Origin: Alkalilimnicola ehrlichii MLHE-1
GTDB lineage: Bacteria; Pseudomonadota; Gammaproteobacteria; Nitrococcales; Halorhodospiraceae
DNA length: 32,000 nt
Direction: 5' to 3'
NCBI RefSeq assembly: GCF_000014785.1
Contig: NC_008340.1
Location: 2,850,001 to 2,882,000 of the forward strand
Shown: one piece after another, positions 5,941 through 32,000 of the stretch
Numbering within the stretch: position 1 is the stretch's first letter
Layout: every line of letters starts with the position of its first letter
Translations under genes and position numbers: made by a program
Notes under the pieces: generated by a model
Told to the model about the DNA's origin: nothing
What the model saw: the letters and a program-made list of their open reading frames with translations, nothing else
Database searches by the model: none

Positions 5941-5985
5941 ACCACGGCCACGGCGCGGGGCCCCGGCGGGTCGCACGGCCTCCGA

Positions 5986-7752
5986 TCAGGGCGCCACGCC
6001 CAGGGCGGTGCCCTCCCGCCTCGGGTCGGCGGCCCCGTGGCGCACCCCGTCACCGTCCACGAAGATGGCGTGCACCCCGCTGGTCATCCCCCGCACCGAC
6101 ACCTCGTGGCCGCGCTCGCGCAGAGCCCCGGCCAGCGCCTCGCTGCCCTCCACCGCCTCCAGCTTGGTGGGGCCGTTGCGGTTGTTCCAGTTGGGTGCCG
6201 CCACCGCCTCGGCCAGGGGCGCCCCCTCCCCCAGCACCAGCGCCAGGTGGCGGGCGGTGTAGCCGATGATCCAGGGGCCGCCCGGCGAGCCCACGGCCAG
6301 GCGCAGGGCATCGTCCTCGAAGGCCAGGGTGGGCGACATGGCGCTCATGGGGCGCTTGCCGGGGGCCACCCGGTTGGCCACCGGGTCGCCATTCCCGTCC
6401 TCCGGTTCGAAGGCGAAGTCGGTCAACTGATTGTTGAGGATAAAGCCGCGCACGAACAGCCCGGAGCCGAAGGGCATCTCCACCGACGAGGTCATGGACA
6501 CGGCATTGCCTTGGGCATCCACGATGGAGAGGTGGGAGGTGGAGGGGCGCGCCGGTCTCCGGGGCATGGCGGCCTGCTCCGGCTCCAGGGCTAACCCGGC
6601 CTCCGCCTCGCCCATGCTCCGGACCGGGTCGATCAGGGCAGCCCGTTCGTCCAGGTAGTCGGCGTCCAGCAGGTCGGCCACCGGCACCGGCTCGTGGTCC
6701 GGATCGGCGGCGAAACGGGCCCGGTCCGCGTAGGCCAGGCGCGAGGCCTCCGCCAGCAGGTGCGCCCGATCGGCCTCATCCTCCGGCGGGTGGACGGCCT
6801 CGGCCCGTTCCAGCAGCCCCAGGATCTGCAGCACGACGAAGCCGCCGGCGGGGGGTGGGGCGCTGCAGACCCGGTGCCCGGCGTAGGGCGCACAGACCGG
6901 CTCCCGCACCTCCGCCCGGTAGCCGGCCATATCCTCCAGGGTCAACCGGCCCGGGTTGTGGGCCGCCCCCTGCACGGCGTCGACGATAGCCTCGGCGATG
7001 GGGCCGGTGTAAAAGGCCTCCGCCCCCGCCTCGGCGATCCGGCTCAGGGTGTCGGCCAGTGCCGGGTTGCGCAGGCGTTGGCCCACCGGCAGGGGCTCGC
7101 CCTCGTCGGTGTGGAAATAGGCCCGGGCGGCCTCATTGTCGAGGATGGCCCACTCCCGCTGAAGGATGTCGTTCAGACGGGGACTGACCTCGAACCCTTC
7201 CCGGGCCAGCTCGATGGCCGGTTGGAACAGCTCCGCCCAGGGCCGGGCGCCGTGCCGCGCATGGGCCTGCTCGAACAGCCGCACCACGCCGGGGACACCC
7301 ACGGCGAGGCCGCCGCTGACCGCCTCCCGGAAGTCCATGGGCTCGCCATCCTGCAGGAAGAGCCCGGCGTCAGCGGCCGCCGGCGCGGTCTCGCGACCGT
7401 CGTAGGCCAGGGTCTCACCGGTCCCGGCGTCGTGATGGAGCAGGAAGGCGCCGCCACCGATGCCGCTGGACTGGGGCTCCACCAGGGTAAGCACCAACTG
7501 CGCGGCGATGGCGGCATCCACCGCGCTGCCCCCGGCGGCGAGCAGTTCATGGGCCGCCCGGGTGGCGTGGGGGTTGGCGGTCACCGCCATGGCCCCCTCG
7601 GTCTGGGCGCTGCGCTTCTCCTCCGGTACCCAGGGCTGGACGTCGCCGCTGGCGTTGGCTGCCATCAACAGGGCGACCAGGGCACACGCCGCCGGTAACA
7701 GGCGGAGGCGCCAGCGGCGCATCGGGGCGGGTGGTGGCAAGGGTTCACTCAT
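5986..7752 (-). CDS. ggt: Gamma-glutamyltransferase
   Basis: ATG at 7752. The N-terminus looks like a signal peptide (RRWRLRLLPAACALVALLMAANASG). The autoprocessing/catalytic Thr context is RPSTSHLSIVDAQGNAVSMTSSVEMPFGSGL. The whole length reads as GGT-like. Confidence 0.9.
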   Translation of the reverse strand: MSEPLPPPAPMRRWRLRLLPAACALVALLMAANASGDVQPWVPEEKRSAQTEGAMAVTANPHATRAAHELLAAGGSAVDAAIAAQLVLTLVEPQSSGIGGGAFLLHHDAGTGETLAYDGRETAPAAADAGLFLQDGEPMDFREAVSGGLAVGVPGVVRLFEQAHARHGARPWAELFQPAIELAREGFEVSPRLNDILQREWAILDNEAARAYFHTDEGEPLPVGQRLRNPALADTLSRIAEAGAEAFYTGPIAEAIVDAVQGAAHNPGRLTLEDMAGYRAEVREPVCAPYAGHRVCSAPPPAGGFVVLQILGLLERAEAVHPPEDEADRAHLLAEASRLAYADRARFAADPDHEPVPVADLLDADYLDERAALIDPVRSMGEAEAGLALEPEQAAMPRRPARPSTSHLSIVDAQGNAVSMTSSVEMPFGSGLFVRGFILNNQLTDFAFEPEDGNGDPVANRVAPGKRPMSAMSPTLAFEDDALRLAVGSPGGPWIIGYTARHLALVLGEGAPLAEAVAAPNWNNRNGPTKLEAVEGSEALAGALRERGHEVSVRGMTSGVHAIFVDGDGVRHGAADPRREGTALGVAP

Positions 7753-7965: not shown

Positions 7966-8904
7966 TTACAGGGGCTTCAGCCGGCGTTCAATGGCCTCCC
8001 GCCGGGGCTCCAGGAAGGGCGGCAGCGCCAGGGATTCGCCCAGGTGCTCCAGCGGTTCATCCGTCGCGAACCCGGGCCCGTCGCTGGCCAGTTCCATGAG
8101 GATCCCGTTGGGCTCCCGGAAATAGAGGCTGCGAAAGTAGAAGCGGTCCACCGGGCCGCTGTTGGGCAGGCGGATCTCGGCCAGGTGGCGGGCCCAGGCC
8201 TCGTACTCCTCGTCCGCCACCCGGAAGGCCACGTGGTGCACCCCGCCGGCCCCCGGGCCGGCAGGGGCCCGGCCCGGTTCCTCGGCGACATGCAACTCCG
8301 CGCCGGCGCCCCCGGGGCCCATGGCGTACACCCGCACCGCCACCCCGTCATCCCGGTAGCGGCGCGCCTCCCGCATCCCCAGGGCACCGGTCAGCAGGGC
8401 GTCCAGCGCCTCGGGCTCGCGGACGCTGAGGGTGATGGGGCCCAGGCCCCGGATCTGGTAGTCCAGGGGTACCGGGCTGGCGGACCAGGGCCGGGCGGGC
8501 TCGCCCTCACCACCGTCGTCCACCAGGCTCAGGCGCTGCCCTTCCGAGTCCTCGAAGTCGATAACCCGGCGGCCGTCGCGGGTGGCGATCCCACCGCAGG
8601 GGACGCCGGCGGCCTCCAGGCGGGCCTGCCACCACGCCAGAGCCTCCTCGCCGGCCACCCGCAGCGCAGTGCGGCAGATGCTCTGGCTCCCCCGCCGCTC
8701 CGGGGGCGCGGGGAAATCGAAGAAGGTGATGTCGGTACCCGGCGAGCCCTCGCCGTCGGCGTAGAACAGATGATACGCCTCGGTCTGGTCCTGGTTGACC
8801 GTCTTCTTGACCAGCCGCATGCCCAGGGTGCCGGTGTAGAAGGCCAGGTTGCCCGGGGCGTCCGCCGTGACGGCGGTAAGATGGTGAATGCCTTTCAGTT
8901 GCAT
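7966..8904 (-). CDS. VOC (glyoxalase/bleomycin-resistance/dioxygenase) family ring-cleaving dioxygenase, two-domain
   Basis: ATG at 8904 with GGGAGA upstream. The N-terminus [65 protein letters not shown] is typical of this family. A second VOC domain contains [10 protein letters not shown]. Confidence 0.8.
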
Positions 8905-9071: not shown

Positions 9072-9148
9072 TGGTGGGCCCGGCAGGACTTGAACCTGCG
9101 ACCAAGCGATTATGAGTCGCCTGCTCTGACCAACTGAGCTACAGGCCC
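9072..9148 (-). tRNA. tRNA with CAU anticodon, most likely tRNA-Ile2 (lysidine-modified) rather than elongator Met
   Basis: The reverse complement is GGGCCTGTAGCTCAGTTGGTCAGAGCAGGCGACTCATAATCGCTTGGTCGCAGGTTCAAGTCCTGCCGGGCCCACCA. It folds as a cloverleaf with an encoded CCA. As I recall, the anticodon arm and variable region GGCGACTCATAATCGCTTGGTCGC match E. coli ileX. The position just downstream of rpoD also parallels E. coli. Confidence 0.9.
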
Positions 9149-9216: not shown

Positions 9217-11013
<1,797 letters not shown>

Positions 11014-15553: not shown

Positions 15554-15755
15554 GCCGGCCTGCCGTGCCGGGGCGGGTGGATCGCTGGGGCGACTTATGC
15601 GCACCGAGCAACGCAGCAAAAAGTCGGAAAAAAGGCGCGCCTGTCCGAGCGAAGCGAGTTCGCGCCGCCGACTTTTTGTGAGTAGCGCAGGGCACCCCGA
15701 AGGGGTGCGCATTTGGAGCCCCAGCGATCCACCCGCCCCGGCACGGCAGGCCGGC
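15554..15755 (+). repeat. Nested-palindrome intergenic element, copy 1 (37-bp perfect outer arms at 15554-15590 and 15719-15755)
   Basis: GCCGGCCTGCCGTGCCGGGGCGGGTGGATCGCTGGGG | CGACTTATGCGCACCGAGCAACGCAGC | AAAAAGTCGG | AAAAAAGGCGCGCCTGTCCGAGCGAAGCGAGTTCGCGCCG | CCGACTTTTT | GTGAGTAGCGCAGGGCACCCCGAAGGGGTGCGCATTTGGAG | exact reverse complement of the first arm. It lies between the divergent plsY and folB genes. Confidence 0.9.
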
Positions 15756-15863
15756 ACCCCGAAGGGGTGCACAATAACGGGACGCTAGCAAACGTGGTCC
15801 GCACGATTTGGCGCACTAACCGCAACTCGCTATAGTGCCCGCTTTGCACCACCCGGAGCCGTC

Positions 15864-16705: not shown

Positions 16706-17913
16706 CCCGGCAACGCCACCCGGCCCTCGACCTGCCCGAGCCCGATGCCAGCGCCCGCGCCCACAGCGAGGCCCTGCAGGCGCGGATCCGCGACGCCATC
16801 CGATCCGCCGGCGGCTGGCTGCCGTTCGACCGCTACATGGGCATGGCCCTGTACGAGCCCGGACTGGGTTACTACAGCGCCGGCGCGCCGCGCTTCGGCG
16901 AAGGTGGCGACTTCACCACCGCACCGCTCATCTCGCCACTTTTCAGCCGCACCCTGGCCCACACCGTACAGCGCGCCCTGCAGGCCCTGGAGCTCGCCAC
17001 CGGCCAGGGCGAGGTGCTGGAACTGGGCGCCGGCAGCGGACGGATGGCCGCCGACATCCTGCTGGAGCTGGAGCGGCTGGGGCAGCTTCCCGCCCGCTAC
17101 CTCATCCTCGAGGTCAGCGCCGCCCTGCGCCAGGAACAGCACCGCACCCTGGGTGAACACGCCCCCCACCTGCTCGACCGGGTGGAGTGGCTGGAACAGC
17201 TCCCGGAACACCCCATTACCGGCGCCCTCCTCGCCAACGAAGTCCTCGACGCCCTGCCCTTTCGCTGCTTCGAGCGCGGGCGCGACGACATCCTGGAACG
17301 CGGCGTGGCGCTGGACGACGACGACCACCCGCAGTGGGCCACCCGTCCCGCCGATGAGCCCCTGGCCGGCCACGTCCGCCACATCGAGGCCGAGACCGGC
17401 CGGCGGCTGCCCCCCGGTTACCGCAGCGAGTGCCTGCCGCAACTGGCCGATTGGCTGCGCGACACCACCCGCTGCCTGGCGCGGGGCCTGGTACTCTACA
17501 TCGATTACGGCTACCCCCGGCGCGAGTACTACCTGCCCGACCGCCACATGGGCACCCTGCTCTGCCACTACCGCCACCGCGCCCACGAGGACCCTTTCCT
17601 CTGGCCCGGGCTGCAGGACATCACCGCCTTCGTCGACTTCACGGCCGTGGCCGAGGCGGCACTGGCCGCCGACCTGGACGTGCTCGGCTTCACCAGCCAG
17701 GCCCAATACCTGCTCGCCGCCGGCCTGGCGCACCTGGCCGACGAGGCCATGGCGCAGCACGACGACGACATGCACCGCCTTCAGATCGCGCAACAGGTCC
17801 GCCGCCTCACCCTGCCCTCCGAACTGGGCGAGCGCTTCAAGGTCCTGCCCCTGGGCCGCGACCTGGCCCCCCTGCCGGAATTCATCCGCACCGACCAGCG
17901 CCACCGCCTTTGA
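16702..17913 (+). CDS. Class I SAM-dependent methyltransferase, MidA/NDUFAF7 (DUF185) family
   Basis: The ATG at 16702 overlaps the folK stop (ATGA). ..WLPFDRYMGMALYEPGLGYYSAG..FGEGGDFTTAPLISPLFSRTLA..VLELGAGSGRMAADIL.. are typical family motifs. Confidence 0.85.
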   Translation: MTRQRHPALDLPEPDASARAHSEALQARIRDAIRSAGGWLPFDRYMGMALYEPGLGYYSAGAPRFGEGGDFTTAPLISPLFSRTLAHTVQRALQALELATGQGEVLELGAGSGRMAADILLELERLGQLPARYLILEVSAALRQEQHRTLGEHAPHLLDRVEWLEQLPEHPITGALLANEVLDALPFRCFERGRDDILERGVALDDDDHPQWATRPADEPLAGHVRHIEAETGRRLPPGYRSECLPQLADWLRDTTRCLARGLVLYIDYGYPRREYYLPDRHMGTLLCHYRHRAHEDPFLWPGLQDITAFVDFTAVAEAALAADLDVLGFTSQAQYLLAAGLAHLADEAMAQHDDDMHRLQIAQQVRRLTLPSELGERFKVLPLGRDLAPLPEFIRTDQRHRL

Positions 17914-17927
17914 TGCAGACTGACGCC

Positions 17928-18123
17928 GGCGGTGGGCCGACGGGGCCCCATCCGCCAGGGCGACTTTTGCGCACCGAGCATCGCAGCTTTCAGGGGGAAA
18001 AAAGCGCGCGCCTGTCCGAGCGAAGCGAGTTCGCGCGCTCCCCCTGAAAGCGAGAAGCACAGGGGACCCCGAAGGGGTGCGCAATCGGAGCCCAGGCGGA
18101 TGGGGCCCCGTCGGCCCACCGCC
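17928..18123 (+). repeat. Nested-palindrome intergenic element, copy 2 (most divergent; arms 17928-17960 and 18091-18123 with one A:A mismatch)
   Basis: GGCGGTGGGCCGACGGGGCCCCATCCGCCAGGG | CGACTTTTGCGCACCGAGCATCGCAGC | TTTCAGGGGG | AAAAAAGCGCGCGCCTGTCCGAGCGAAGCGAGTTCGCGCGCT | CCCCCTGAAA | GCGAGAAGCACAGGGGACCCCGAAGGGGTGCGCAATCGGAG | reverse-complement arm. It starts 15 nt after the midA-like stop. Confidence 0.9.
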
Positions 18124-23182: not shown

Positions 23183-24649
23183 TCAGTCTAATCCCAGCTT
23201 AGGCCAGAGCGCATCGACCCGCGCCCGGGTCTCGTCATCCATGACAATAGGCCGCCCCCACTCGCGGTCGGTCTCGCCGGGCCACTTGTGGGTGGCATCG
23301 AAGCCGATCTTGGAACCCAGGCCGGAGACCGGCGAGGCAAAGTCCAGGTAGTCAATAGGCGTGTTATCGATCATCACGGTGTCCCGCTTGGGGTCCATGC
23401 GCGTGGTCATGGCCCAGATGACATCCTTCCAGTCGCGGGCGTTCACGTCGTCGTCGGTAACGATAACAAACTTGGTGTACATGAACTGGCGCAGGAAGGA
23501 CCACACGCCCAGCATCACCCGCTTGGCGTGGCCGGGGTACTGCTTTTTCATGGTGACCACGGCCATGCGGTAGGAGCACCCCTCCGGCGGCAGGTAGAAA
23601 TCGCTGATCTCGGGGAACTGTTTGCGCAGGATGGGCACGAAGACCTCGTTGAGCGCCACCCCGAGGATGGCCGGCTCGTCCGGCGGCCGGCCGGTATAGG
23701 TGGAGTGGTAGATGGGGTCGCGGCGGTGGGTGATGCGATCCACGGTGAACACCGGGAAGTGGTCCACCTCGTTGTAGTAGCCGGTGTGGTCCCCAAAGGG
23801 CCCCTCCGGTGCGGTGTCGTCCGGGTGGATGTGCCCTTCCAGGACGATCTCCGCCGAGGCGGGCACCTGCAGGTCCGGGCCCAGGCACTTGACCAGCTCG
23901 GTCTTGCTGCCGCGCAACAGCCCGGCGAAGCCGTACTCGGACAGACTGTCGGGCACCGGGGTGACGGCCCCCAGGATGGTGGCCGGGTCGGCACCGAGGG
24001 CGATGGCCACGGGGAAGGGTTCGCCCGGCCGCTCGCGCTGCCAGTCGCGGAAGTCCAGCGCCCCGCCCCGGTGGGCGAGCCAGCGCATGATGGTTCGGTT
24101 GCGGCCGATCACCTGGTTGCGGTAGATGCCCAGGTTCTGGCGCTCCTTCTCCGGGCCGCGGGTCACCACCAGCGCCCAGGTGATCAACGGCCCGGCGTCC
24201 CCCGGCCAGCAGGTCTGCACCGGCAGCCGGCCCAGGTCCACGTCATCGCCCTCCACCACCACCTCCTGGCAGGCGGCACGGCGGACCTTTTTCGGGCCCA
24301 TGTCCAGCACCTTGCGGAAGACCGGCAACTGCGACCAGGCGTCGCGCAGCCCCTTGGGGGGTTCCGGCTGGCGAAGGAAGGCGAGCAGCTCGCCGATCTC
24401 GCGCAGGGCGGAGACGTCCTCGGCCCCCATGCCCAGGGCCACCCGGCGCGGCGTCCCGAAGAGGTTACCGAGGACGGGCATCCTGTACCCCTTGGGCTTT
24501 TGGAACAGGATGGCGGGGCCTTCGGCGCGCAGGGTGCGGTCGCAGACCTCGGTCATCTCCAGCCGCGGGTCCACCTCGACGTCGACCCGGCGCAGTTCGC
24601 CGTCGGCCTCCAGCTTGCTGATGAAGTCGCGCAGATCGCGGTATTTCAT
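23183..24649 (-). CDS. ubiD: 4-hydroxy-3-polyprenylbenzoate decarboxylase UbiD
   Basis: The ATG at 24649 has AAAGGA upstream. [41 protein letters not shown].. is collinear with E. coli UbiD. The 50-aa extension from the track start at 24799 is Arg/Pro-rich and not UbiD-like. Confidence 0.93.
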
Positions 24650-24832
24650 GGGCCGTCCTTTCTGACTGTTGGCGTCGGTTGATGATAGCACTCTGGCGCC
24701 ACCGACTTTACGGGGCCGCCCCGGGGCGCGAATGGCGCGGCGGCAGCGGCGGGCGGGTTCTGATAATCTGGTAGGCGCAGGCCTTGCCTGCAGTCGCATG
24801 GAGCGAGACCCACCACAACAAGGCAGGACGCC

Positions 24833-25306
24833 ATGGATTTACTGGAACCCGTATACCGTCCCGGTGGTACCTTCTTTTTCACCCTGGCCACCGGGCGCCG
24901 TCAGCCCCATTTCCGTAACCCCCTTCAGGTGCAGTACCTGCGCACGGCGTTGCGCCAGGTGATGCGCGACCATCCCTTCCACATCGTCGGTGCGGTGGTG
25001 ATGCCGGACCATCTGCATACGGTGTGGACGTTGCCGGACGAGGATCATGCCGGGCGCTGGAAGCGGGTCAAGCTGCGGGTGTCGCGCGCGGCGGGGTTAC
25101 GGGGGTACTGGGACCCGGCGGTGCGCAGTCTCCCGCTGGAGTCCCCGGCGGCGCTGCGTGAGACCCTGGACCGCCTGCACGCGGACCCGGTGCGCCACGG
25201 CCTGGCCGACGCCCCGGCGGACTGGCCGCAGAGCTCCTTCCGGTTTTGGGTCAAGCGGGGCTTGTATGCCCAGGACTGGCAGCCGGAGCCAGCCGGCACC
25301 CGGTAG
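24833..25306 (+). CDS. REP-associated tyrosine transposase (RAYT, IS200/IS605 Y1 HUH family), possibly catalytically degenerate
   Basis: ..[46 protein letters not shown]...[35 protein letters not shown] is collinear with RAYTs such as E. coli YafM (..GGTWFFTV..LPEHMHCIWTLPEGD..DYIYINPVKHGWV..DWPFSTFHRDVARGLYPIDW). HUH is present as HLH. Confidence 0.8.
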
Positions 25307-25376
25307 GTCGCACGGTTTGGTCACGGGATGCTGCGCTTTGGCGGAAGCGAGATCGGGTAATTGGGCTTGAGTGATC

Positions 25377-25498
25377 GGCTCGTTGGCCGGCTGCGATGAG
25401 GCTCGTTGGGCGGGTGCGGTCTGTTGGTTGGGCGACTGCGATCAGGCTCGTTGGGTGGAGCGGTCTGTTGGTTGGGCGACTGCGATGGGGCTCAGGAC
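25377..25498. repeat. Degenerate ~45-bp tandem repeat (about 2.7 units)
   Basis: Units start at 25377 (partial), 25400, 25445 and 25489. Unit sequence: GGCTCGTTGGG(C/T)GG(G/A)(T)GCGGTCTGTTGGTTGGGCGACTGCGAT(C/G)(A/G). The last unit runs into the left arm of the adjacent palindrome. Confidence 0.85.
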
Positions 25499-25606
25499 GG
25501 GGTGCGGCGGTGGTTCGGGTGCGAATACGCCGTGAACCCATCCATGGGGGCTCGTAGGCAGCATCCCTGCTGCCTACGATTCGCACCCGAACCACCGCCG
25601 CACCCC
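25499..25606. repeat. Palindromic element: 28-bp perfect inverted repeat enclosing a GTAG-hairpin
   Basis: The left arm GGGGTGCGGCGGTGGTTCGGGTGCGAAT (25499-25526) is the exact reverse complement of 25579-25606. The inner hairpin has 10-bp arms, CGTAGGCAGC/GCTGCCTACG (25553-25578). Confidence 0.9.
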
Positions 25607-25801
25607 TCCAGATGGTCGGCTTTGGGCTTTCGGATGGCTGCTGAGGGGGGTGTGCCGGGACACGACCTGCACCAAGCGGCACTTCACCCCATCTTTGAGA
25701 GACCACGGGAGACACCAGCGCAGGCCGGGGTTGGGGGTTGCGATGGCCGTATCCTCAGACCTCGACACCCAATGCCGACAACGAACCTCCCAAAGCAGAG
25801 G

Positions 25802-27841
25802 TCACGCCGCCAGCCCGGAATGCCGCAACAGGGCGTCGATCCGCGGCGCCCGCCCGCGGAAGTTGCGGAACAGCACCATGGGGTCCTCGGAGCCGCCCTT
25901 CTCCAGGATGTGGGTCATGAACTCATGCCCGGCCTGTTGGTTGAAGATGCCCTCCTCCTCAAACCGCGAATAGGCATCCGCCGACAGCACCTCCGCCCAC
26001 TTGTAGCTATAATAGCCGGCCGCATAACCGCCGGCAAAGATATGCCCGAAGCTGTTGGCAAAGCGGTTCCACTCCGGCGGCCGGACCACCGCCACCTGCT
26101 CGCGCACCTCCTCCAACAGCGGATAGATGCGCGCGCCCCGCTCCGGGTCATACCCCGCGTGCAGGCGGAAATCGAACAGCGAGAACTCGAGCTGGCGCAC
26201 CATCTGCATGGCCGACTGGAAATTGCGCGCCGCCCGCATACGCCGGAAGAGATCCTCCGGGATCCGGGCCCCGGTCTGATAGTGCGCCGCGAACAGATCC
26301 AGCGCCTCGCGCTCCCAGCACCAGTTCTCCATGAACTGACTGGGCAACTCCACCGCATCCCAGGCAACCCCGCGGATCCCGGCCACCGCCGGCGCCTCCA
26401 CCCGGGTCAGCATGTGGTGCAGCCCGTGGCCAAACTCGTGGAACAGCGTGGTCACCTCGCCGTGGGTGAGCAGTGCCGGCTGGTCGCCTACCGCCGGCGT
26501 GAAGTTACAGGTGAGATAAGCCACCGGCACCTGCACCCGCTCCCCCTGGCGCATCCGCGCCCGGCACTCGTCCATCCAAGCGCCGCCGCGCTTGTGGGGG
26601 CGGGCATAGAGATCGGTGTAGAAGGCCCCGCGCAGATCGCCGTCCCGGTCGCGGATCTCGTAGTAGCGGACGTCCTCGTGCCAGACGGGCACGCCCTGGC
26701 GCTCCTCAATATGCAGGCCGTAGAGCCGCTGCACCACCTCAAAGAGCCCGGCCATCACCCGCTCGGCCGGGAAATAGGGACGAAGGTCCTCGTCCGAGAG
26801 TTGGAAGCGGGCCTGGCGCAGCTTCTCCGAGGCATAGGGGATATCCCAGGCCTGGAGGTCGGTCAGACCCAGCTCCTCGCCGGCAAAGCGGCGCAGCTCG
26901 GCCAGCTCATCCTCGGCGCGGGGCCGGGCGCGCTCAGCCAGGTCATTCAGGAAGCCCAGGACCTCATCGGTGGAGCCGGCCATCTTCTTGGCCAGGGAGA
27001 GTTCGGCGAAGTTGTCGTACCCCAGCAGCCGCGCCTTCTCGTGGCGCAGGGCCAGGATCTCCTCCATCAGCGGCAGGTTGTCCCATTGGCCGCCGTGGGG
27101 CCCCCGCTCGGAGGCCCGGGTGCTCCAGGCCTCGTAAACCTCGCGGCGCAGCGCGCGGTCGTCGGCGTAGGTGATGACCGCGAAGAAGCTGGGGAACTCC
27201 AGGTTGATCCGGTAGCCCTCGACTCCGGCGCGCTCAGCGGTCTGCCGGGCCAGCGCCAGGGAGGAGTCGGGCAGGCCGGACAGGACCTCCGCGTCCGACA
27301 GGTCCTTGTGCCAGGCGTTGGTGGCGTCGAGTACGTTCTCGCCGAACTTGGCGGAGAGCTCGGACAGGCGTTGGGCGATCTCTCCGTAGCGTTGCTTCTG
27401 GTCCGCCGGCAGGTCCACGCCTGAGAGGCGGAAGTCGCGCAGGGCATTGTCGATGGTGCGCTGCTGGGCACTATCCAGCGCCTGGTACTCCTCACTGTCG
27501 CGCAGGGCGTGGAAGGCGGCGCACAGTTCGGCGTTCTGCCCCACTTCGGTGGCGTAAGCGCTGAGCTTGGGCAGACAGGCATTGTAGGCGGCGCGCAGCG
27601 CCTCGCTGTTAACCACCGCGTTCATATGCGAGACCGGCGACCAAGCCCGGCTCAGGCGCTCGTCGGCGGCCTCCAGCGGCGCCACCAGCCCGTCCCAGGT
27701 CCAGTCGCCCCGCTCCAGCACCTCACGCAGGGTCTGCCGGCAGTGGGCCAGCAACTCGTCGATGGCCGGCTCCACGTGCTCGGGCTGGATCTCGGGGAAG
27801 GGCGGCAGCGGCTCGTCGTGCAGCAGCGGATTGTCGCTCAT
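25802..27841 (-). CDS. prlC: Oligopeptidase A (M3 metallopeptidase)
   Basis: The track start at 27856 is a GTG. The ATG at 27841 gives MSDNPLLHDEPLPPF.., parallel to the E. coli PrlC N-terminus. The zinc motif is TLFHEFGHGLHHMLT. Confidence 0.93.
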   Translation of the reverse strand: MSDNPLLHDEPLPPFPEIQPEHVEPAIDELLAHCRQTLREVLERGDWTWDGLVAPLEAADERLSRAWSPVSHMNAVVNSEALRAAYNACLPKLSAYATEVGQNAELCAAFHALRDSEEYQALDSAQQRTIDNALRDFRLSGVDLPADQKQRYGEIAQRLSELSAKFGENVLDATNAWHKDLSDAEVLSGLPDSSLALARQTAERAGVEGYRINLEFPSFFAVITYADDRALRREVYEAWSTRASERGPHGGQWDNLPLMEEILALRHEKARLLGYDNFAELSLAKKMAGSTDEVLGFLNDLAERARPRAEDELAELRRFAGEELGLTDLQAWDIPYASEKLRQARFQLSDEDLRPYFPAERVMAGLFEVVQRLYGLHIEERQGVPVWHEDVRYYEIRDRDGDLRGAFYTDLYARPHKRGGAWMDECRARMRQGERVQVPVAYLTCNFTPAVGDQPALLTHGEVTTLFHEFGHGLHHMLTRVEAPAVAGIRGVAWDAVELPSQFMENWCWEREALDLFAAHYQTGARIPEDLFRRMRAARNFQSAMQMVRQLEFSLFDFRLHAGYDPERGARIYPLLEEVREQVAVVRPPEWNRFANSFGHIFAGGYAAGYYSYKWAEVLSADAYSRFEEEGIFNQQAGHEFMTHILEKGGSEDPMVLFRNFRGRAPRIDALLRHSGLAA

Positions 27842-27975: not shown

Positions 27976-28186
27976 TCGAGTGTCGGGCGGCCGGGCGGGG
28001 GATCGTCCGCTGGGGCTCCAAATGCGCACCCCCTTCGGGGGTTCCCTGCGCTACTCGGGAAAAATCGGCGCGCGTGAACTCGCTTCGCTCGAACAGGCAC
28101 GCGCTTTTCCCGATTTTTCCCTGCGTTGCTCGGTGCGCATAAGTCGCCCCAGCGGACGATCCCCCGCCCGGCCGCCCGACACTCGA
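27976..28186 (-). repeat. Nested-palindrome intergenic element, copy 3 (inverted orientation; 40-bp perfect arms at 27976-28015 and 28147-28186)
   Basis: The reverse complement reads TCGAGTGTCGGGCGGCCGGGCGGGGGATCGTCCGCTGGGG | CGACTTATGCGCACCGAGCAACGCAGG | GAAAAATCGG | GAAAAGCGCGTGCCTGTTCGAGCGAAGCGAGTTCACGCGCG | CCGATTTTTC | CCGAGTAGCGCAGGGAACCCCCGAAGGGGGTGCGCATTTGGAG | reverse-complement arm. Confidence 0.9.
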
Positions 28187-30449: not shown

Positions 30450-30673
30450 GCTATCTCCGTGATCTGCCCGGCAATCCTGTCATGAATCCAACGTTGATTA
30501 TTCGCGACAGTCTGCCAATATGGCAAAAGTCGGGTTACATGCTTGACCAGTCTGACTCAGGACTGCCGAATCCCTCGAGTGCATCGTGTGTTCAGCAGCC
30601 TCCCAGCCAGTCCGGGCAACGCTTGCAACCCGGCGGGGAACGCTTTACGTCAAGGTTTTCAGAGGTTGCTGTC

Positions 30674-30883
30674 ATGGCAGAACGCGAGACCGGTACGGTC
30701 AAATGGTTTGATAACGCCAAGGGGTTCGGCTTCATCCAGCGCGAGCAGGGTGAGGACGTGTTTGTGCATTTCCGCGCGATCCGCGGTGAGGGCTTCCGCT
30801 CGCTGGACGAGGGCCAGCAGGTGGAGTTCAACGTGGTTCGCGGCCCCAAGGGCCTGCAGGCGGAGGACGTGGCGGCGGTCTGA
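30674..30883 (+). CDS. Cold-shock protein (CspA family)
   Basis: The ATG at 30674 has AGAGG 8 nt upstream. The track start at 30482 adds a non-homologous 64 aa. [36 protein letters not shown].. contains the RNP1/RNP2 motifs. Confidence 0.93.
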
Positions 30884-30904
30884 GCCCGCCTCGACTGCAT
30901 GTCC

Positions 30905-30930
30905 GGACGGGGGCCTGACGGCCCCCGTCC
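30905..30930. terminator. GC-rich hairpin between the convergent csp and EVE genes
   Basis: GGACGGGGGCC-tgac-GGCCCCCGTCC, an 11-bp perfect stem followed by a weak GCGTTCTG tract. Confidence 0.5.
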
Positions 30931-30954
30931 GCGTTCTGCCCGGCGTGAGCCGAC

Positions 30955-31431: not shown

Positions 31432-31507
31432 GCACTCCCCCGGTTGCAAGCCAATAATCGGCGCCAGTTTTGCACAGCGCGACGGGGTTTGTCTTATCGG
31501 CCCGGGC

Positions 31508-31721
31508 GGCTGTTGGGACATGCCGGGGAGGGGCGGAGATCGGGATGGGGCGACTTATGCGCACCGAGCAACGCAGCAAAAGAGCGGAAAAAAGGCGCGC
31601 CTGTCCGAGCGAAGCGAGTTCGCGCCGCCGCTCTTTTGCGAGTAGCGCAGGGGACCCCGAAGGGGTGCGCATTCGGAGCCCCATCCCGATCTCCGCCCCT
31701 CCCCGGCATGTCCCAACAGCC
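31508..31721 (+). repeat. Nested-palindrome intergenic element, copy 4 (43-bp perfect arms at 31508-31550 and 31679-31721)
   Basis: GGCTGTTGGGACATGCCGGGGAGGGGCGGAGATCGGGATGGGG | CGACTTATGCGCACCGAGCAACGCAGC | AAAAGAGCGG | AAAAAAGGCGCGCCTGTCCGAGCGAAGCGAGTTCGCGCCG | CCGCTCTTTT | GCGAGTAGCGCAGGGGACCCCGAAGGGGTGCGCATTCGGAG | exact reverse-complement arm. Confidence 0.9.
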
Positions 31722-31728
31722 ACCTTGG

Positions 31729-32000
31729 CTAGCGCCTGACCGAGCCGTTTCGCGGGATCCAGATTCCCCGCTCCGTCGCCACCCCGTGCAGCGGGATATC
31801 CCAGGGGGCCAGGGGCAGCTCCGGGACGTGCTGGAAGGACCAGGCCACACCCAGCAGGCGGGGGTGGGTGCGCCAGCGCCAGCGCCCGAGGAAGGCGAAG
31901 CTGGCATCGTAGAAGCCGCCGCCCATGCCGAGCCGGCCGCCCCGGTGGTCGAACGCCACCAGCGGCGTCAGCACCAAGTCGAGATCCCGGGGGCGCAGTA
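31729..32000 (-). CDS. 5-formyltetrahydrofolate cyclo-ligase (C-terminal part; the 5' end lies beyond the right edge)
   Basis: ..LRPRDLDLVLTPLVAFDHRGGRLGMGGGFYDASF.. is the family's C-terminal motif (G-RLG-GGG-YD). The track 'start' at 31977 is an internal TTG, and the frame stays open to the window edge. Confidence 0.8.
   Translation of the reverse strand, partial: LRPRDLDLVLTPLVAFDHRGGRLGMGGGFYDASFAFLGRWRWRTHPRLLGVAWSFQHVPELPLAPWDIPLHGVATERGIWIPRNGSVRR

Follow-up and report, generated by a model that had tools for sequence, protein, structure and literature searches.

The subject here is a gene for a homologue of the REP-associated tyrosine transposases (RAYTs), with the repeats around it, in a 32,000-nucleotide stretch of the genome of Alkalilimnicola ehrlichii MLHE-1 (NC_008340.1, positions 2,850,001 to 2,882,000 of the forward strand), the whole of which is called the window and supplies the coordinates used below. 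RAYTs are the textbook domesticated transposases of bacteria, and they maintain populations of repetitive extragenic palindromes (REPs) and of the REP doublets known as REPINs. The gene (24833-25306, plus strand) stands between ubiD, on the minus strand with its called start at 24649, and prlC, also on the minus strand with its stop codon at 25802, and is divergent from the former and convergent with the latter. An MLHE-1 protein named ‘REP-associated tyrosine transposase’ is 100% identical to its product. The identical protein is encoded on the 3.19-Mb chromosome of a second A. ehrlichii strain (GCA_049200435.1), where the DNA of the locus, L001, is ~98.8% identical to that of the window, and also by several short-read contigs. 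The order ubiD, RAYT-like gene, prlC is found in both A. ehrlichii strains, in Alkalispirillum mobile and in related metagenome-assembled genomes (MAGs), and within the sequence data examined the gene is single-copy and keeps a fixed position across the two genera.

A sequence-only reading of the window had described a REPtron-like locus inserted between ubiD and prlC, with GTAG hairpins on both sides of a RAYT gene and with four ~200-bp elements elsewhere in the window as its candidate partners. All the coordinates that it quoted are correct, with the sequences present at those positions, and its placement of the gene between ubiD and prlC holds for Alkalispirillum as well. The features of the locus, with the basis for each, are as follows.

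24771-24791, plus strand: GTAG with a 6-bp hairpin in the divergent intergenic region of ubiD and the RAYT-like gene, at chance level (window counts, folding, sister-genus comparison)
24833-25306, plus strand: gene for a TnpAREP/RAYT homologue of 157 amino acids, with arginine instead of the catalytic tyrosine (NCBIfam, PDB 4ER8, AlphaFold/Foldseek, dN/dS)
25010-25018, plus strand: codons of the retained HUH motif, H60-L61-H62, aligned to H59-M60-H61 of E. coli TnpAREP (roles from PMC3479197)
25172-25174, plus strand: CGC codon for Arg114, which aligns with the catalytic Tyr115 of E. coli TnpAREP
25361-25494, plus strand: G/T-rich tandem repeat of ~3 units of 44-45 nt (22-nt sub-units), unstructured (repeat search, folding) and absent in Alkalispirillum
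25499-25606, no strand assigned: 108-bp palindromic element with perfect 28-bp outer arms and an asymmetric 52-nt centre (repeat search, folding)
25523-25581 (59 nt), plus strand: conserved core common to the metagenomic element L017 and Rfam Ysr224-type elements (Rfam, nhmmer, alignment A9)
25553-25578, no strand assigned: GTAG-footed hairpin with a 10-bp stem in which GTAG pairs with CTAC (sequence, counts, folding)
15554-15755 (E1), 17928-18123, 27976-28186 (E3, minus strand) and 31500-31729: the 200-bp elements, with an Alkalispirillum copy at 17553-17760 of locus L006

The TnpAREP homologue and its active site

By sequence and by fold the product of the gene is a genuine TnpAREP/RAYT homologue, and in this the sequence-only reading was right. 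It scores 108.2 bits against NCBIfam NF047646 (REP_Tyr_transpos, cut-off 80), and phmmer aligns its residues 7-151 with PDB 4ER8, which is E. coli TnpAREP and the only solved TnpAREP structure, at E=7.1e-30; the match to Pfam Y1_Tnp is sub-threshold only. The AlphaFold model (pLDDT 94.4, pTM 0.88) is placed by Foldseek on 4ER8 with a TM score of 0.83 and an rmsd of 2.3 Å, and IS200/IS605 transposases score far lower. With the E. coli protein it shares 37-39% identity, the HUH motif, the His122 ligand and the basic surface of helices alpha-B and alpha-C, and the two genes are alike in being single-copy, chromosomal, syntenically conserved and adjoined by a GTAG-bearing hairpin. An apparent 17-amino-acid deletion in the alignment was considered as a trait of the clade and rejected, as E. 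coli TnpAREP has an equally short linker.

The likeness does not extend to the nucleophile. The active site of E. coli TnpAREP comprises Y115, H59/H61, N119, H123 and E161 (PMC3479197), its Y115F mutant is inactive (PMC8266576), and the signature of class 2 HuH Y1 proteins is Y---NP (PMC6006769). The window protein keeps the metal-binding motif, as P-D-H60-L-H62, and two further metal ligands, the histidine as H122 and, with D118 for N119, an aspartate, but in the alignment it has R114 for Y115, so that helix alpha-D reads D-R114-L-H-A-D118-P, with R---DP instead of Y---NP; it is also without the C-terminal tail that carries E161, and its RFWEH motif is lost. No substitute tyrosine specific to the clade is found in the aligned members, where the sole invariant tyrosine, Y145, is conserved in canonical RAYTs also. 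On our own mapping from the phmmer alignment to 4ER8, most of the nine basic or polar residues that contact the hairpin in E. coli (PMC3479197) correspond to lysine, arginine or serine in the window protein (K77, K80, R82, S84, R85 and R90). Lacking the nucleophilic tyrosine, the protein would not be a working REP transposase: judging from alignment and model, the known mechanism of cutting and joining REPs should not be open to it, as no covalent 5′-phosphotyrosyl intermediate could form. The RefSeq label thus overstates its capacity. The replacement of the catalytic tyrosine by arginine was overlooked in the sequence-only reading.

Arginine at this column is common to the four members of the clade. 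They are the window protein, P0002 and P0020 (Alkalispirillum mobile WP_121442616 and related MAGs), which are 77% identical to it, and the metagenomic P0003 at 56% identity, whose gene is located elsewhere, between an ABC ATPase gene and an aldo/keto reductase gene (locus L010). The arginine codon differs synonymously among the lineages, CGC versus CGG, and the ORF (open reading frame) is intact in at least four lineages, down to that 56% identity. In comparison with Alkalispirillum the gene has a dN/dS of 0.25 and a pN/pS of 0.33 (Fisher p=4e-10), and is under purifying selection, though less stringently than the neighbouring ubiD, prlC and fre, for which dN/dS is 0.08-0.12. As no member of the clade has the tyrosine, the loss predates the split between Alkalilimnicola and Alkalispirillum and the constraint has operated since.

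The wider family puts this in perspective. In a profile search of 1.84 billion representatives, tyrosine is present at the column in 129 of the best 150 family members and about 20 are without it. The Tyr-less proteins, ~13% of those best 150, have R, A, W, F, H, L and other residues there, and the variant DPVRHG, in place of NPVKHG, is found in many of them, a sign that one subfamily may have lost the nucleophile repeatedly. The closest Tyr-bearing relative, P0052 (locus L024), is 46% identical to the window protein and is sister to the Tyr-less clade in a neighbour-joining tree. P0052 retains DYLHYNP, and GTGGGAGCGG...CCGCTCCCAC hairpins stand on either side of its gene (1130-1263 and 1789-1902 of a 1.9-kb contig). 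Both features are missing from the window gene; the P0052 locus is a canonical, textbook REPtron and a useful contrast to that of the window. Since the sister is canonical, the Tyr-less clade descended from ordinary RAYTs.

The gene flanks and the 3′ palindrome

Of the claim that GTAG hairpins stand on both sides of the gene, the 3′ half stood and the 5′ half did not. A 6-bp stem with a 3-nt loop is indeed present at 24771-24791, but it is one of 6 sites in the window at which a hairpin of 6 bp or more goes with GTAG (dinucleotide shuffles give 2.4 ± 1.6), the fold of the 5′ leader is no more stable than expected by chance (z=-1.5), and the Alkalispirillum counterpart has GTGG not GTAG, with the hairpin not conserved and a different one nearby. 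The repeat search of the window gave no repeat common to both flanks. The strong GTAG hairpin is on the 3′ side only, so that, in distinction from E. coli TnpAREP, the gene has no matched pair of cognate REPs or BIMEs (bacterial interspersed mosaic elements) on its two sides, and the ~38 kb of A. ehrlichii sequence covered give no sign of a dispersed REP population. No other copy of the GTAGGCAGC hairpin is present in them, and the 9-mer GTAGGCAGC, with up to 1 mismatch, is not enriched elsewhere in the window. A possible REP relic at the stop codon of the RAYT-like gene, GTAGGTCG, was rejected as it does not fold into a hairpin (z=+0.7), and a promoter and terminator scan of the locus gave nothing useful.

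The 3′ structure is of a different order. Its hairpin, cGTAGGCAGC-atccct-GCTGCCTACg, is exactly as had been read at 25553-25578, and the 28-bp inverted repeat that encloses it (25499-25526 and 25579-25606) is perfect. As single-stranded DNA, 25495-25610 has a predicted folding energy of -60.7 kcal/mol, which none of 200 shuffles equalled (z=-12.9), and it folds as one long stem around a Y-shaped centre. For GTAG with a perfect stem of 9 bp or more the expectation is 0.07 per window, and this palindrome, once per strand, is its sole site. No target-site duplication or element termini could be discerned around the palindrome, where only 8-mers were found, and scans of viral contigs and blastn against plasmids with the element gave no matches. 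Breaks of Logan contigs at 25489-25564 were considered as a sign of repetition and are not diagnostic. The 3′ region is 100% identical in the two A. ehrlichii strains, which makes their comparison uninformative, and it is Alkalispirillum that is instructive: at loci L006, L007 and L020 just 30 bp, with neither tandem repeat nor palindrome, separate the stop codon of the RAYT-like gene from that of prlC, and the whole 495-bp spacer of the window is therefore specific to the A. ehrlichii lineage. The palindromic repeat probably entered it in that lineage, together with the G/T-rich tandem stretch.

What kind of repeat this may be became apparent from metagenomes. A scan with a pattern taken from the window hairpin, CGTAGGCAGC-N6-GCTGCCTACG, gave five matches, four of which were rejected as unrelated palindromes. 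The fifth, L017, is in a contig of 58% GC between a thiamine pyrophosphate (TPP) riboswitch and thiC. Relative to the window it agrees at 5 of 6 loop positions and at 24 of 32 positions of the adjacent core tail, for which the pattern had not selected; its small hairpin is compensated, CCCATGGATGGG against TACAGGGATGTA, and its long outer stem differs in sequence from that of the window. L017 matches the Rfam family RF02770, Ysr224, with 43.4 bits (E=2.5e-7, below the gathering score of 70), and is linked by nhmmer to enterobacterial copies at E=8e-9. The window copy matches the same family with 28.9 bits, at E=1.3e-4 for 501 nt and 8.6e-3 for the whole window. Matches of long palindromes to plant and animal miRNA precursors in Rfam were rejected as those of generic hairpins.

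In Yersinia, Ysr224 has multiple copies, and it is one of the ‘sRNAs’ (small RNAs) annotated most often (PMC12112432, PMC9029176). A search with its consensus found copies on plasmids of Yersinia, Escherichia, Klebsiella, Citrobacter and Pantoea, and of the three enterobacterial copies examined the two measured are units of 165-166 bp; copies are bounded by direct duplications of 15-28 bp that contain hairpins. The YPAL/RU-2 repeat is ~168 bp long, with internal inverted repeats and target duplications of 3-26 bp at dyad symmetries (PMC2229807), and from these matching properties, as distinct from a published sequence, Ysr224 would be YPAL/RU-2. In alignment A9, of five copies from distant hosts, ~40 core columns are invariant, with the skeleton G..AA.ACGC....CATCC.TG...GCTC..[stem]ATCC.TG[stem]ACG.TT, and all five copies fold as a long stem of copy-specific sequence around the core.

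The window element has the core ACGCCGT.AA..CATCCATG..GGCTCG, followed by a hairpin with the ATCC(C/T)TG loop, inside a long stem of the kind whose sequence changes from copy to copy, and it is intergenic at gene ends as the others are. It is unlike them in being G+C-rich, in having a tandem repeat in front and GTAG in its hairpin stem, and in lacking recognizable counterparts of the enterobacterial termini GAGGTT..TGACAA and TTGTCA..CAGTCT and a target duplication. The GTAG-carrying stem has other sequences in the enterobacterial copies, so GTAG is not a family-wide property of the stem; just upstream of it Yersinia and L017 have TGTAGGCTCG versus TGGGGGCTCG in the window. The 44-45-nt tandem units before the palindrome weakly resemble the left terminal region of Ysr224-type elements. 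On these sequence comparisons the 3′ structure can be placed, up to the level of the family, as a diverged copy of a Ysr224-type palindromic repeat, whereas the proposal that its hairpin is the cognate REP of the gene found no demonstrated link, the family being one of far-off hosts and the element being absent at the Alkalispirillum locus.

The L017 contig has features of its own. It is gammaproteobacterial, and at 7999-8350 the element is between the TPP riboswitch and the start codon of thiC. A second TPP riboswitch is 2.4 kb downstream (10425-10543), and 5965-6031 is a possible second, weak copy of the Ysr224-like element.

The flanks of other Tyr-less homologues also carry repeats. Downstream of the P0003 gene two GTAG hairpins, the first a canonical one, enclose two 86-nt units. 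Behind the gene of another Tyr-less relative, P0076 (motif DRLHDDP), 2233-2330 of L026 contains GGTAGGCGCA, a 10-mer that recurs in the window 5′ motif at 24770-24779, and five 15-mers in tandem, CGGTAGGGGCCTGAA.

The four 200-bp elements

The 200-bp elements are a real family, as had been read, with exactly four copies in the window (nhmmer E=1e-49 to 3e-60). Between copies, identity is 75-93% in the core of ~140 nt and falls to 32-67% in the outer arms, although the arms are 89-93% self-complementary. Three of the four, and the Alkalispirillum copy, have GAGTAG and then an imperfect hairpin; E2 has GAAG instead of GTAG. A scan of genome contigs with the 22-nt core of the elements gave a chance match in an archaeal MAG (L013) and one distant relative (L014) only, and did not return the source genome itself despite the exact copies in the window.

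None of the four adjoins the RAYT-like gene. The nearest, E3, is on the far side of prlC, at 2.4 kb from where the 3′ palindrome ends and ~2.7 kb from the stop codon of the gene, a distance that matches the density of one element per 8 kb. With respect to sequence, an nhmmer profile of the elements finds the four copies and nothing in the flanks of the gene, and blastn-short with both flanks finds no match below E=0.1. The architecture that had been taken to connect the two, a copy-specific stem around a conserved core, is a real resemblance, but it is a trait of Ysr224-type repeats too and therefore does not tie the 200-bp elements to the gene. On sequence grounds the four elements are a repeat family separate from the element in the RAYT flank. 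REPIN-RAYT systems, as in Pseudomonas and E. coli, similarly combine a domesticated single-copy RAYT-type gene with abundant long-hairpin intergenic repeats, but their RAYT has an intact catalytic centre and the REPINs on its flanks are those found throughout the genome, while the 200-bp repeats of the window are unrelated to the flanks of the gene and are not REP doublets.

The occupancy of element sites differs between the genera, with one copy at the Alkalispirillum locus where A. ehrlichii is empty, and the E3 site empty in Alkalispirillum. At both of these orthologous sites the empty one keeps a likeness of the element arm next to the flanking gene. Precise deletion of the core and one arm, on two occasions, could have left such remnants, or insertion could make an inverted copy of adjacent host DNA, and inverted copying of the host flank at insertion would explain arms that are copy-specific and self-complementary. 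Of E3 the second A. ehrlichii strain has just a poly-G run and partial arms left (L001 13140-13200), ~147 bp being missing relative to window 27976-28186, either from palindrome-driven deletion or as an assembly artefact at a long hairpin. Just past the right arm of E1, at 15753-15775, the core hairpin, GGCACCCCGAAGGGGTGC, is present once more (repeat family D7).

Alternative explanations and possible roles

The reading that we prefer, with a probability of about 0.62, is that the window has a conserved, Tyr-less and non-transposing TnpAREP homologue beside a Ysr224-type repeat, with no link to the 200-bp elements. The locus is, then, degenerate and REPtron-derived rather than a demonstrated REPtron, and its protein is not a credible mobiliser of those elements. 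The description of the locus as REPtron-like is borne out with regard to the RAYT homologue, the synteny and the strong 3′ GTAG hairpin, and not with regard to the tyrosine or a matched REP pair. Most likely the protein would survive through binding to structured single strands, either ssDNA or RNA hairpins, and at most as a hydrolytic nuclease. The GTAG-footed 3′ hairpin is a plausible predicted binding site for it, and the Ysr224-type insertion may just happen to carry that hairpin or may have been retained for it. Several considerations weigh against this preference. The loss of the tyrosine rests on alignment and model, and an unconventional nucleophile is possible. The window copy is far under the RF02770 gathering score (28.9 versus 70 bits), nhmmer gives it E=0.25, though as the top match in the window and at the exact place, and its terminal repeats and target duplication are not definable. 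The Ysr224 assignment leans on L017, itself found with the window-hairpin pattern. Moreover GTAG-bearing repeats are directly 3′ of three separate Tyr-less homologues, those of the window, L010 and L026, a recurrence which suggests that the adjacency is perhaps not accidental and which keeps alive the reading of the locus as a relic, but functional, REPtron. There the Tyr-less protein and the 3′ GTAG element would be a co-evolved pair, the element being a cognate REP-derived site whose binding could serve autoregulation, or termination or mRNA stability between the convergent RAYT-like gene and prlC. GTAG is at the foot of the hairpin on both strands, the 681-nt flanks contain GTAGG 3-4 times, with 0.87 expected (p ~0.06 on a count of 3), the hairpins 3′ of P0003 are canonical and the 15-mers 3′ of P0076 also contain GTAG, and the basic residues for hairpin binding are mostly kept. 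We nevertheless consider a co-evolved pair rather unlikely, as the protein is conserved at the Alkalispirillum locus where the element is absent, the GTAG-bearing stem differs in sequence in other members of the repeat family, and GTAG in the window is base-paired within the stem whereas that of E. coli REPs is single-stranded 5′ of the foot (PMC3479197). Furthermore the Ysr224 family is found in Yersinia, a genus reported to be outside the hosts of GTAG REPs (PMC3733652).

An active RAYT with the four 200-bp elements as its REPIN-like substrates and the flanking hairpins as its REPs, the model of the sequence-only reading, is very improbable. It can draw on the GAGTAG and imperfect hairpin of most of the elements, on the presence of both the protein clade and the element family in Alkalilimnicola and Alkalispirillum, and on the difference in site occupancy between them. 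But the catalytic tyrosine is missing throughout the clade and was lost before the genera split, the flanks and the elements are without sequence similarity, the nearest element is across prlC at the distance that density predicts, and the elements, one with GAAG for GTAG, are not symmetric REP doublets. Scarcely better placed is the notion of a decaying pseudogene, a dead RAYT drifting to loss with meaningless leftovers around it. The lost nucleophile and RFWEH motif, and evolution faster than that of the neighbouring genes, are what it would predict, and sequences without HuH or Y have been treated as possible pseudogenes (PMC6006769). Against it are the ORF that is intact across lineages, a dN/dS significantly below 1, a confident model (pLDDT 94), and metal ligands and an Arg114 that are invariant, the latter with synonymous change at its codon.

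The published view, to our knowledge, gives all RAYTs a single catalytic centre. Where, as in this clade, fold, metal site and constraint persist after the nucleophile has gone, domestication would have advanced by a further stage, to a protein that probably does no more than bind, and with ~13% of the closest 150 representatives lacking the tyrosine such proteins may be common and currently filtered out as ‘pseudogenes’. It is a tentative idea, on the doubtful side, that RAYT derivatives with tyrosine changed to arginine, retaining metal site and hairpin surface, form a functional class of their own, beside GTAG repeats, as REP- or hairpin-binding regulators or as hydrolytic nucleases of ssDNA or RNA, with the Ysr224/YPAL-type element as the partner in A. 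ehrlichii. If this is so, it would provide the first candidate protein partner for Ysr224/YPAL repeats, none having been found in the literature surveyed on the family. The Ysr224-type link of the 3′ structure carries that repeat family far beyond Enterobacterales, and the locus as a whole illustrates that pairing of a repeat with a RAYT is not to be inferred from mere proximity.

Two further features of the window may be noted. At the start of a cold-shock-domain gene (codon ~30522) there is a sub-threshold match to the Rfam cspA thermoregulator at 30627-30934 (30.5 bits, E=2e-4), and the sole Rfam match in the window above its gathering score is to a single tRNA gene at 9075-9148 on the minus strand (72.9 bits).

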